From assembly GCF_045037415.1 (NCBI RefSeq), contig NZ_CP173438.1: a stretch of DNA of 64,000 nt; one strand, written 5' to 3'. This DNA is from Escherichia coli. Lineage in GTDB: Bacteria; Pseudomonadota; Gammaproteobacteria; Enterobacterales; Enterobacteriaceae. The notes under the pieces were generated by a model. It saw only the letters and a list, made by a program, of their open reading frames with translations, was not told the DNA's origin and searched no databases. Shown piece by piece: positions 2,358 to 7,186 of this stretch (its first letter is position 1; the number at the start of each line of letters is the position of its first letter). The position numbers were made by a program, and so were the translations under genes.

Positions 2358-2840
2358 ATGACAAACCTGACACTGGATGTAAATATTATCGATTTCCCAT
2401 CAATCCCTGTGGCGATGTTGCCGCACCGCTGTAGCCCTGAGTTGCTCAACTACAGCGTGGCGAAATTTATCATGTGGCGTAAAGAGACGGGGCTTTCTCC
2501 TGTTAACCAAAGCCAGACTTTTGGCGTCGCCTGGGACGACCCTGCCACCACCGCACCAGATGCGTTTCGCTTTGATATCTGCGGCAGCGTTAGCGAACCG
2601 ATCCCCGATAATCGTTATGGCGTAAGTAATGGTGAACTTACCGGTGGACGTTATGCTGTGGCCCGCCATGTTGGCGAGCTGGACGATATTTCACACACGA
2701 TATGGGGCATCATTCGCCACTGGCTGCCTGCAAGCGGCGAGAAAATGCGTAAAGCACCGATTCTGTTTCACTACACCAATCTTGCCGAAGGGATGACAGA
2801 GCAGCGACTGGAAATGGATGTTTATGTACCGTTAGCGTGA
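2358..2840 (+). CDS. ygiV: GyrI-like domain protein YgiV
   Basis: 160-aa ORF MTNLTLDVNIIDFPSIPVAM..., matching my recollection of the YgiV sequence and length. Confidence 0.85.
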   Translation: MTNLTLDVNIIDFPSIPVAMLPHRCSPELLNYSVAKFIMWRKETGLSPVNQSQTFGVAWDDPATTAPDAFRFDICGSVSEPIPDNRYGVSNGELTGGRYAVARHVGELDDISHTIWGIIRHWLPASGEKMRKAPILFHYTNLAEGMTEQRLEMDVYVPLA

Positions 2841-2948
2841 TGGGGAATCTTTACCGGAGTGTGAGCCAAATCACTCGCGATAAGTTTGAGCAAACAATGC
2901 CACAGGCGTATTGTTGTCGGGCTTATAATTTCTCCGGTAAGGAATACC

Positions 2949-4556
2949 ATGTATACGCGAAATTTATTATGGCTGGTCAGCCTGGTAAGTGCGGCTCCTC
3001 TCTACGCTGCTGACGTTCCCGCCAACACACCGCTCGCCCCGCAACAAGTCTTTCGTTACAACAATCATAGCGACCCAGGCACGCTCGACCCGCAAAAGGT
3101 AGAGGAGAATACCGCCGCGCAGATTGTGCTGGATCTGTTTGAAGGTCTGGTATGGATGGACGGTGAAGGCCAGGTGCAGCCCGCTCAGGCTGAACGCTGG
3201 GAGATACTTGACGGCGGCAAGCGCTATATTTTCCATCTGCGTAGCGGTTTGCAGTGGTCAGACGGTCAGCCTCTGACGGCAGAGGATTTTGTCCTCGGCT
3301 GGCAGCGCGCGGTTGACCCGAAAACGGCAAGCCCTTTTGCTGGCTATCTGGCACAGGCGCACATTAACAATGCCGCGGCTATTGTTGCGGGTAAAGCAGA
3401 TGTTACATCGCTGGGTGTCAAAGCGATGGATGATCGTACTCTTGAAGTTACGCTTGAGCAGCCGGTTCCTTGGTTCACGACGATGCTCGCCTGGCCGACG
3501 CTGTTCCCGGTTCCTCATCATGTCATCGCTAAACATGGCGATAGCTGGAGTAAGCCAGAGAACATGGTTTACAACGGTGCCTTTGTGCTTGATAAATGGG
3601 TAGTTAACGAAAAGATTACTGCACGCAAAAATCCAAAGTACCGCGATGCGCAACATACAGTATTGCAACAGGTTGAGTATCTGGCGCTGGATAATTCGGT
3701 CACCGGCTATAACCGCTATCGCGCGGGAGAGGTCGATCTCACCTGGGTTCCGGCGCAGCAAATTCCCGCCATTGAAAAATCACTGCCTGGCGAGCTACGA
3801 ATTATCCCGCGTCTGAACAGCGAATATTACAACTTTAACCTTGAGAAACCGCCATTTAACGATGTGCGGGTGCGTCGGGCGCTATATCTTACGGTTGATC
3901 GACAGCTTATTGCGCAAAAGGTACTGGGGTTGAGAACGCCCGCAACCACGCTGACGCCGCCAGAGGTAAAAGGCTTTAGCGCGACGACGTTCGATGAACT
4001 GCAAAAGCCAATGAGTGAGCGCGTCGCGATGGCAAAAGTCTTGCTGAAACAGGCGGGATACGACGCCTCTCATCCGCTACGCTTTGAGCTGTTCTACAAC
4101 AAGTACGATCTGCATGAAAAGACCGCGATAGCGTTGTCTTCCGAATGGAAAAAATGGCTGGGTGCACAGGTGACGCTGCGCACAATGGAGTGGAAAACCT
4201 ATCTTGATGCCCGACGAGCCGGTGATTTTATGCTGTCTCGGCAGTCGTGGGATGCGACGTACAATGATGCCTCCAGCTTCCTGAACACGCTCAAAAGCGA
4301 TAGTGAAGAAAACGTCGGCCACTGGAAAAACGCGCAGTATGACGCCTTACTAAACCAGGCGGCACAAACGGCTGATGCAACAAAGCGTAATGCGCTGTAT
4401 CAGCAGGCAGAAGTGATCATCAACCAGCAGGCACCGCTGATTCCCATCTACTATCAGCCGTTAATCAAACTGCTTAAACCCTACGTTGGCGGTTTTCCGC
4501 TGCATAATCCCCAGGATTATGTCTACAGCAAAGAGTTGTATATCAAGGCACATTGA
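2949..4556 (+). CDS. ygiS: Periplasmic solute-binding protein (ABC family 5) YgiS
   Basis: Track ORF 2886..4556; preferred start ATG at 2949 (MYTRNLLWLVSLVSAAPLYA signal peptide). Oligopeptide-binding-protein-like sequence. Confidence 0.88.
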   Translation: MYTRNLLWLVSLVSAAPLYAADVPANTPLAPQQVFRYNNHSDPGTLDPQKVEENTAAQIVLDLFEGLVWMDGEGQVQPAQAERWEILDGGKRYIFHLRSGLQWSDGQPLTAEDFVLGWQRAVDPKTASPFAGYLAQAHINNAAAIVAGKADVTSLGVKAMDDRTLEVTLEQPVPWFTTMLAWPTLFPVPHHVIAKHGDSWSKPENMVYNGAFVLDKWVVNEKITARKNPKYRDAQHTVLQQVEYLALDNSVTGYNRYRAGEVDLTWVPAQQIPAIEKSLPGELRIIPRLNSEYYNFNLEKPPFNDVRVRRALYLTVDRQLIAQKVLGLRTPATTLTPPEVKGFSATTFDELQKPMSERVAMAKVLLKQAGYDASHPLRFELFYNKYDLHEKTAIALSSEWKKWLGAQVTLRTMEWKTYLDARRAGDFMLSRQSWDATYNDASSFLNTLKSDSEENVGHWKNAQYDALLNQAAQTADATKRNALYQQAEVIINQQAPLIPIYYQPLIKLLKPYVGGFPLHNPQDYVYSKELYIKAH

Positions 4557-4693
4557 TGCCTTTATCGCCGCCGGAGCACGTCCGGCGGCGCTATTCACGC
4601 TGATCTCCTGTGACTCGACGCGGCAGATAATGTAGTATCTCCGGCAATATTGCCCCTTTGAAGGCTGGCGAATAAGTTGAGGAATCAGAATTA

Positions 4694-6952
4694 ATGAGCG
4701 ATATGGCAGAGCGCCTTGCGCTACATGAATTTACGGAAAACGCCTACTTAAACTACTCCATGTACGTGATCATGGACCGTGCGTTGCCGTTTATTGGTGA
4801 TGGTCTGAAACCTGTTCAGCGCCGCATTGTGTATGCGATGTCTGAGCTGGGCCTGAATGCCAGCGCCAAATTTAAAAAATCGGCCCGTACCGTCGGTGAC
4901 GTACTGGGTAAATACCATCCGCACGGCGATATTGCCTGTTATGTAGCGATGGTCCTGATGGCGCAGCCGTTCTCTTACCGTTATCCGCTGGTTGATGGTC
5001 AGGGGAACTGGGGGGCGCCGGACGATCCGAAATCGTTCGCGGCAATGCGTTACACCGAATCCCGGTTGTCGAAATATTCCGAGCTGCTATTGAGCGAGCT
5101 GGGGCAGGGGACGGCTGACTGGGTGCCAAACTTCGACGGCACTTTGCAGGAGCCGAAAATGCTGCCTGCCCGTCTGCCAAACATTTTGCTTAACGGCACC
5201 ACCGGTATTGCCGTCGGCATGGCGACCGATATTCCACCGCATAACCTGCGTGAAGTGGCTCAGGCGGTAATTGCCTTAATCGACCAGCCGAAAACCACGC
5301 TCGATCAGCTGCTGGATATCGTGCAGGGGCCGGATTATCCGACTGAAGCGGAAATTATCACTTCGCGCGCCGAGATTCGTAAAATCTACGAGAACGGACG
5401 TGGTTCAGTGCGTATGCGCGCGGTTTGGAAGAAGGAAGATGGCGCGGTGGTTATCAGCGCATTGCCGCATCAGGTTTCAGGTGCGCGCGTACTGGAGCAA
5501 ATTGCTGCGCAAATGCGCAACAAAAAGCTGCCGATGGTTGACGATCTGCGCGATGAATCTGACCACGAGAACCCGACCCGTCTGGTGATTGTGCCGCGTT
5601 CCAACCGCGTGGATATGGATCAGGTGATGAACCACCTCTTTGCTACCACCGATCTGGAAAAGAGCTATCGCATTAACCTCAATATGATCGGTCTGGATGG
5701 TCGTCCGGCGGTGAAAAACCTGCTGGAAATCCTCTCCGAATGGCTGGTGTTCCGCCGCGATACCGTGCGCCGCCGACTGAACTATCGTCTGGAGAAAGTT
5801 CTCAAGCGCCTGCATATCCTCGAAGGTTTGCTGGTGGCGTTTCTCAATATCGACGAAGTGATTGAGATCATTCGTAATGAAGATGAACCGAAACCGGCGC
5901 TGATGTCGCGGTTTGGCCTTACGGAAACCCAGGCGGAAGCGATCCTCGAACTGAAACTGCGTCATCTTGCCAAACTGGAAGAGATGAAGATTCGCGGTGA
6001 GCAGAGTGAGCTGGAAAAAGAGCGCGACCAGTTGCAGGGCATTTTGGCTTCCGAGCGTAAAATGAATAACCTGCTGAAGAAAGAACTGCAGGCAGACGCG
6101 CAAGGCTACGGTGACGAACGTCGTTCGCCGTTGCATGAACGCGAAGAAGCGAAAGCGATGAGCGAGCACGACATGCTGCCGTCTGAACCTGTCACCATTG
6201 TGCTGTCGCAGATGGGCTGGGTACGCAGCGCTAAAGGCCATGATATCGACGCGCCGGGCCTGAATTATAAAGCGGGTGATAGCTTCAAAGCGGCGGTGAA
6301 AGGTAAGAGCAACCAACCGGTAGTGTTTGTTGATTCCACCGGTCGTAGCTATGCCATCGACCCGATTACGCTGCCGTCGGCGCGTGGTCAGGGCGAGCCG
6401 CTCACCGGCAAATTAACGTTGCCGCCTGGAGCGACCGTTGACCATATGCTGATGGAAAGCGACGATCAGAAACTGCTGATGGCTTCCGATGCGGGTTACG
6501 GTTTCGTCTGCACCTTTAACGATCTGGTGGCGCGTAACCGTGCAGGTAAGGCTTTGATCACCTTACCGGAAAATGCCCATGTTATGCCGCCGGTGGTGAT
6601 TGAAGATGCTTCCGATATGCTGCTGGCAATCACTCAGGCAGGCCGTATGTTGATGTTCCCGGTAAGCGATCTGCCGCAGCTGTCGAAGGGCAAAGGCAAC
6701 AAGATTATCAACATTCCATCGGCAGAAGCCGCGCGTGGCGAGGATGGCCTGGCGCAACTGTACGTTCTGCCGCCGCAAAGCACGCTGACCATTCATGTTG
6801 GGAAACGCAAAATTAAACTGCGTCCGGAAGAGCTACAGAAAGTCACTGGCGAACGTGGACGCCGCGGTACGTTGATGCGCGGTTTGCAGCGTATCGATCG
6901 TGTTGAGATCGACTCTCCTCGCCGTGCCAGCAGCGGTGATAGCGAAGAGTAA
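4694..6952 (+). CDS. parC: DNA topoisomerase IV subunit A
   Basis: 752-aa [35 protein letters not shown]... with the GyrA/ParC N-terminal motifs. Confidence 0.97.
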
Positions 6953-6993
6953 TATGCCGGGGAGGGCGCTGTTTCCTCCCGCTTGCAAGGAAC

Positions 6994-7023
6994 GCCGGAT
7001 GAAACGTTAAGTCGTCATCCGGC
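6994..7023. repeat. REP-like palindromic element downstream of parC
   Basis: GCCGGATGAAACGTTAAGTCGTCATCCGGC; the GCCGGATG...CATCCGGC arms resemble the REP consensus. Confidence 0.4.
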
Positions 7024-7186
7024 AGCGTATTCAATCCCCGGAAACGATAAAAATTCCCTTGAAACCGTTGTTTATTCATGCGTTGCGATTAACAATACGC
7101 TTTTCCAGAGAGCGGCTTTTAACAATGCCCTAACCTGATTTTCAGGTGACGTACAATGCCAGTCTCTCAGACCTTCAGAGGGTGTT

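Follow-up and report, generated by a model that had tools for sequence, protein, structure and literature searches.

The 64-kb window analyzed here, a stretch of the Escherichia coli contig NZ_CP173438.1, carries ygiV and ygiS as direct neighbors, without the toxin-antitoxin genes mqsR and mqsA that lie between them in K-12. The site is very probably the ancestral, never-occupied form: the mqsRA cassette would have been inserted in an ancestor of K-12-type strains, and the lineage of the window would never have received it. This conclusion by parsimony draws on five outgroup loci.

The left flank of the site is ygiV (positions 2358-2840, plus strand), which according to the open reading frame (ORF) list encodes a GyrI-like/AraC-family regulator of 160 aa and ends with a TGA stop codon at 2838-2840. 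At the nucleotide level it is 96.7% identical to K-12 b3023, with four amino acid differences, and the name ygiV is also annotated in genomes that are 100% identical at this locus. The right flank is ygiS (2949-4556, plus strand), an intact gene for a periplasmic OppA-like substrate-binding protein of 535 aa. Its ATG at 2949 corresponds to the start of K-12 b3020, and the two proteins are of equal length and differ at six residues. No internal stop was present, the flank is 98.2% identical to K-12, and the protein aligns with the NCBIfam equivalog PRK09755 along its entire length (positions 1-535 of 535; 1285.6 bits). The first 9 kb of the window harbor qseC (partial) and qseB on the minus strand, followed on the plus strand by ygiW (1913-2305), ygiV, ygiS, parC (4694-6952), plsC, and ftsP. 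The initial annotation had estimated about 108 bp between the ygiV stop and the ygiS start and had reported that mqsR and mqsA are missing from this interval. Indeed, the spacer (2841-2948, plus strand) is exactly 108 bp long, and it contains neither of the two genes and no intervening ORF.

The MG1655 annotation gives the order ygiV (b3023), mqsR (b3022), mqsA (b3021), ygiS (b3020), and parC, with mqsRA between ygiV and ygiS as stated in the initial annotation. The K-12 mqsRA locus (mqsR-mqsA, also named ygiU-ygiT) has the same neighborhood as the window, with qseCB-ygiW-ygiV on one side, ygiS-parC-plsC on the other, and flanks that are 97 to 98% identical. Alignment of the two loci resulted in two collinear blocks, the first reaching to position 2842 of the window (ending with GCGTGATG) and the second starting at 2848 (with TCTTTACCGGAG). 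Between the blocks, K-12 has 927 bp, while the window has only the 5 bp GGGAA (2843-2847); this is the insertion point, at which the 5 bp are replaced by the mqsRA cassette in K-12-type genomes. The remaining part of the spacer (2848-2948, plus strand) is the presumed promoter/leader region of ygiS. It is intact in all allele classes, and the corresponding 101 bp upstream of the K-12 ygiS differ from it by two SNPs only.

The K-12 cassette has a G+C content of 41%, compared to approximately 52% in its surroundings. It comprises the mqsRA promoter with two MqsA palindromes (TAACCTTTTAGGT and TAACCTTTTAGGTTA), mqsR, mqsA, and a terminator; at its right end, a terminator hairpin and the following T-run adjoin TCTTTACC. 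Compared to the K-12 locus, the window thus lacks the toxin, the antitoxin, the MqsA palindromes, and the mqsA terminator. A GGCGC-N6-GCGCC hairpin with a T-rich run behind it was noticed at the left end of the K-12 cassette (K-12 locus positions 5546-5747), within the initial ~90 bp that precede the mqsR promoter palindromes. In cassette-bearing strains, this hairpin could act as a terminator of ygiV transcripts.

Both junctions of the K-12 cassette were inspected. No direct or inverted repeats were detected at the cassette ends, and no microhomology beyond the breakpoints. Furthermore, the K-12 cassette showed no target-site duplication, no terminal repeats, and no recombinase gene. Alignment of the spacer to the K-12 interval, which the initial annotation had proposed as a means to find deletion scars or target-site repeats, revealed neither of them. 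A blastn search with a word size of 7 detected no cassette remnant in the spacer of the window. The possibility that the spacer is a scar left behind when a mobile element was deleted or excised was rejected, since there were neither target-site repeats nor leftover cassette sequence.

The direction of the change was assessed with outgroup loci. Outside E. coli, a GTDB scan with YgiV, in which each species was represented by one genome, yielded five Escherichia loci, those of E. albertii, E. whittamii, Escherichia sp. MOD1-EC7003, Escherichia sp. E1V33, and a distinct species labeled E. coli SCPM-O-B-8794 (E. fergusonii was not among them). MqsR and MqsA were absent from the vicinity of ygiV in all five loci. 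In E. albertii, E. whittamii, and "E. coli SCPM-O-B-8794", an intact ygiS is located 108 to 110 bp from ygiV, and four outgroup species share the breakpoint TGA(n)GGGGA(A)TCTTTACCGGAG with the window. Moreover, the empty allele of E. coli O103:H2 combines the K-12 flanking SNPs on both sides with GGGAA, and judged by these SNPs it is precisely the form that the K-12 haplotype had before the insertion. Since scars and repeats are lacking and the outgroups share the breakpoint sequence, the site is best explained as an ancestral empty site and not as a deletion. The "empty site" of the initial annotation was therefore an apt description, in the sense of an ancestral, unoccupied site. The comparison of the O103:H2 empty allele with K-12 (5 bp versus 927 bp) provides a clean, nucleotide-exact example of a repeat-free insertion of a toxin-antitoxin cassette.

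A secondary loss, in which mqsRA was once present and was removed by precise deletion or, more plausibly, by scarless homologous recombination across ygiV/ygiS with empty-site DNA, is improbable. Recombination is frequent in E. coli, an allelic replacement would leave no trace at the junction, and the locus is plastic, with a 236-bp filler in place of ygiS sequence in 1357 genomes and with deletions involving IS1, IS5, and IS30. However, at least four of the five outgroup species have the same empty junction sequence, which makes a loss superfluous, and the spacer is free of cassette remnants. In addition, a toxin-antitoxin pair is resistant to simple deletion, and lineage-specific SNPs are present in both flanks (96.7% and 98.2% identity to K-12), with no foreign patch seen.

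Under the favored reading of an ancestral site, a single event in the ancestor of the K-12-type lineages would have placed the 927-bp, low-G+C cassette right after the ygiV stop codon. This insertion would have swapped out the 5 bp GGGAA and left the conserved element upstream of ygiS untouched. With the cassette would have come mqsR and mqsA, an autoregulated promoter that carries the two MqsA palindromes, and an intrinsic terminator. The ST131-like lineage of the window, never having obtained the cassette, would have neither the MqsR toxin nor the MqsA repressor, and its ygiS would have remained directly downstream of ygiV, behind the conserved leader. The near-identity of the cassette in 2296 genomes and its constant boundaries are consistent with a single insertion, and its low G+C content together with MqsR-family genes on plasmids of other genera points to a foreign origin.

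We also analyzed whether mqsRA is present elsewhere. Using tblastn with the K-12 proteins, as had been suggested in the initial annotation, no homologue was found in the 64-kb window: the best E value was 0.63 for MqsR (8e-66 in the K-12 control) and 2.5 for MqsA (3e-89 in the K-12 control). The window therefore has neither an ORF for an MqsR-family toxin, a RelE-like mRNA interferase of about 98 aa, nor one for an MqsA antitoxin, which is encoded directly behind the toxin and combines a Zn-binding N-domain with an HTH-XRE C-domain. In line with this, a regular-expression scan for the MqsA operator ACCT-N2-4-AGGT yielded no occurrence in the 64-kb window. These direct searches covered 64 kb of this genome, and the absence of mqsRA beyond them is judged from 5426 complete E. 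coli genomes. Sensitive blastn, plasmids and prophages included, detected the 927-bp cassette in 2299 of the latter. All copies were chromosomal, and they were at least 99% identical in 2296 of the 2299 genomes. Matches of less than 95% identity were not found among the 5426 genomes, in a blastn search that is blind to homologues below about 65 to 70% nucleotide identity.

A 200-bp probe detected the K-12 ygiV-cassette junction in intact form in 2292 genomes, compared to 2299 genomes with any mqsRA sequence. Essentially every mqsRA copy is thus attached to ygiV. Two of the seven genomes with mqsRA but without the intact junction were opened, and both contained IS-related deletions at the same locus. 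In the first, an IS1-mediated deletion had left a 63-bp remnant of the right end of the cassette adjoining ygiS; in the second, an IS5-mediated deletion had removed ygiW-ygiV, with mqsRA still located beside ygiS. At the protein level, MqsR was detected in two E. coli records only of a plasmid collection. One of these records, NZ_MG591698.1, is a 354-kb "plasmid" that carries the chromosomal block ygiZ-qseCB-ygiW-ygiV-mqsRA-ygiS-parC and probably represents a piece of a chromosome or a replicon assigned to the wrong class. The other, NZ_CP141089.1, is also listed as a plasmid but is chromosome-sized (4.9 Mb).

These data bear on the possibility that MqsR/MqsA function is kept in this strain by a relocated or replacing copy in the genome, on a plasmid, or in a prophage, maybe by a divergent member of the family. 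Plasmids of several genera do carry MqsR-family toxins, those of Rahnella, Rouxiella, Pectobacterium, Burkholderia, and others being 57 to 68% identical at the amino acid level, and the 64-kb span of the direct search and the blastn limit of about 65 to 70% nucleotide identity leave some room for such a copy. We nevertheless consider it very unlikely, because the 5426 complete genomes contained no plasmid copies and no matches below 95% identity, the ygiV junction was intact in 2292 of the 2299 genomes with both opened exceptions at the same locus, and genuine E. coli plasmids had no MqsR at the protein level. For the B2 strain NRG857c, too, a published search detected no homologue of MqsRA (PMC7232551). 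Thus, no relocated mqsRA was found in the window, in the 5426 complete genomes, by the junction probe, or among the plasmid proteins. A copy elsewhere in the genome had been named in the initial annotation as an observation that would contradict it, and in the complete E. coli genomes no off-locus copy was encountered. The ygiV-ygiS locus occurs once per genome, so an empty junction there means that a K-12-type mqsRA is lacking.

The same 5426 complete genomes served to determine the frequencies of the alleles. The cassette is present in 2299 genomes (about 42%; sensitive blastn). An uninterrupted empty junction was detected with a 100-bp probe in 3112 genomes (57%), while the window-junction probe of this length gave only a partial match in 2297 further genomes. 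In every occupied genome that was sampled, the right boundary of the cassette lay at the same point (query position 53). The empty junction falls into two classes: in 1357 genomes (25%), a 236-bp filler stands in for most of ygiS, and in roughly 1700 to 1750 genomes (about 32%, calculated by difference), ygiS is intact, as in the window. Rare further states of the locus include the IS30, IS1, and IS5 deletions. The empty site is therefore the majority state of the species (57%), and K-12 is the derived form. A misassembly that collapsed an mqsRA segment to a short spacer can practically be dismissed, because 3112 independently finished genomes show this junction too and the first 25 kb of the window are 100.0% identical to many finished genomes.

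The empty sites of other E. coli lineages (O157:H7 as well as B2 lineages other than that of the window) and of E. albertii and E. whittamii have the same spacer length (108 to 110 bp), the same breakpoint, and an intact ygiS, and differ from the window by point substitutions only. The allele of the window itself is an ST131-type variant, found with at least 99% identity in about 400 to 430 genomes. The filler allele (E. coli W, O103:H2, O111, and others) shares with the window the uninterrupted junction of ygiV and spacer and the first 22 bp of ygiS. It differs in that the sequence equivalent to window positions 2971-4514, corresponding to 1544 bp of ygiS, is replaced by 236 bp of unrelated sequence, whereas ygiS of the window is intact. 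The filler is a single-copy sequence, located at positions 4614-4849 of the E. coli O103:H2 locus. A filler-like sequence with 93% similarity is annotated in one genome as "group II intron maturase-specific domain". This hints at an intron remnant, although a search of the 236-bp filler against Rfam for group II intron domains produced only a chance-level match (E = 0.83).

Other lesions of ygiS were also observed. Independent internal deletions are present in the loci of Escherichia sp. MOD1-EC7003 (6481-7062) and Escherichia sp. E1V33 (3689-4280), E. coli 74-2 has an internal stop, and E. coli MB20 has an IS30-associated truncation. The ygiS gene is repeatedly decaying across the genus Escherichia.

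The part of the spacer downstream of the insertion point was found to be a conserved element that is predicted to be structured. When compared to three other Escherichia species, positions 2848-2948 are 92 to 94% identical, and the 3' 89 nt are 94 to 97% identical. The corresponding values are 87 to 89% for ygiV and ygiS and 70 to 75% for the third codon positions of ygiS. In an alignment of six Escherichia sequences, identity per column was 91%. The predicted RNA fold of positions 2838-2960 has a minimum free energy (MFE) of -43.7 kcal/mol, while the mean of shuffled sequences is -29.1 kcal/mol (z = -4.09), and none of 200 shuffles was as stable. In both the MFE and the centroid fold, an outer stem is formed by TCTTTACCGGAG (2848-2859, plus strand) as the 5' arm and CTCCGGTAAGGA (2932-2943, plus strand) as the 3' arm. 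The latter contains the Shine-Dalgarno sequence of ygiS, AAGGA (2939-2943), and is invariant in all six aligned sequences. The outer stem was predicted in all four Escherichia orthologues that were folded, and its 5' arm starts where the cassette was inserted: the insertion point coincides exactly with the 5' edge of the structured element.

A perfect TATAAT at 2924-2929 (plus strand), read from the sequence, is invariant in the alignment and has no recognizable -35 element; it is a possible -10 element of ygiS. A consensus promoter scan called no sigma-70 promoter in the spacer, and the same scan revealed only a weak terminator-like hairpin at 2897-2909, which occurs at chance frequency. A cmscan search of positions 2600-3200 against Rfam 15 gave no family match (E ≤ 1), and no feature is annotated in this spacer in K-12. 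We infer that the region 2848-2948 is the promoter/leader region of ygiS.

Tentatively, this region may be a conserved cis-regulatory leader. In such a model, which is doubtful at present, the predicted stem would hide the ygiS Shine-Dalgarno sequence on read-through transcripts from ygiW-ygiV, while transcripts starting internally near the TATAAT would lack the 5' arm and would be translated. The cassette with its own terminator would then have changed how ygiS is expressed in K-12-type strains, irrespective of mRNA cleavage by MqsR. If true, this could bear on the conflicting deoxycholate and ygiS phenotypes of mqsRA deletions. The structured element upstream of ygiS is a small, testable lead, and as a point of novelty it is only a mild one.

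The absence of mqsRA is a common and already known strain difference, since mqsRA was already described as accessory and as missing from a B2 strain and, more generally, from B2 and further lineages. Toxin-antitoxin modules are regarded as horizontally mobile by Ramisetty and Santhosh 2016 and as unevenly spread across phylogroups by Fiedoruk 2015 (both papers as cited in PMC7167474 and PMC5120126), and the presence or absence of mqsRA is routinely scored by PCR surveys. Like the accessory type II cassettes reviewed by Fraikin et al. 2020 (PMC7167474), mqsRA is present in some strains and absent from others at an intergenic position of the core genome, is low in G+C, and has no associated mobility genes. 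By having its own terminator, it is an exception to the "no terminator" rule (PMC5120126). The window differs from these cassettes in being the unoccupied counterpart and not a cassette. To this, our analysis adds breakpoints at nucleotide resolution, the polarity of the change (ancestral empty site), the frequencies of the alleles in the population, and evidence that the cassette is confined to one locus.

Without MqsR and MqsA, the functions that depend on them are absent as well, including the reported cleavage of ygiS mRNA by MqsR, which according to Kwan et al. 2015, as cited in PMC6918082, takes place under deoxycholate. The loss of MqsA-dependent regulation, which the initial annotation had deduced, follows logically from the missing mqsA, but its physiological weight is uncertain because the MqsA regulon is disputed (PMC6918082). 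Fraikin et al. 2019 observed no effect of the deletion or mild overexpression of mqsA on the disputed targets rpoS, csgD, and cspD, and suggested that earlier phenotypes may have been due to polar effects on ygiS (PMC6918082). In any case, MqsR/MqsA results from K-12 are not transferable to this strain or to other genomes with an empty site (57%). This concerns biofilm formation, persistence, the bile-salt response via ygiS mRNA cleavage, the control of ghoST, and the claimed repression of rpoS and csgD.

Finally, we considered the background of the strain. Many human clinical isolates match the window over 25 kb at 100.0% identity, and with a 943-bp locus probe the window was identical to genomes labeled O25b:H4-ST131. 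These closest matches suggest that the lineage is ST131-like and belongs to phylogroup B2. ParC, encoded at positions 4694-6952, differs from the K-12 protein by S80I, E84V, A192V, A471G, D475E, and Q481H. The pair S80I/E84V is the classic quinolone-resistance double substitution. Together with the ST131 matches, it fits the fluoroquinolone-resistant ST131 lineage.
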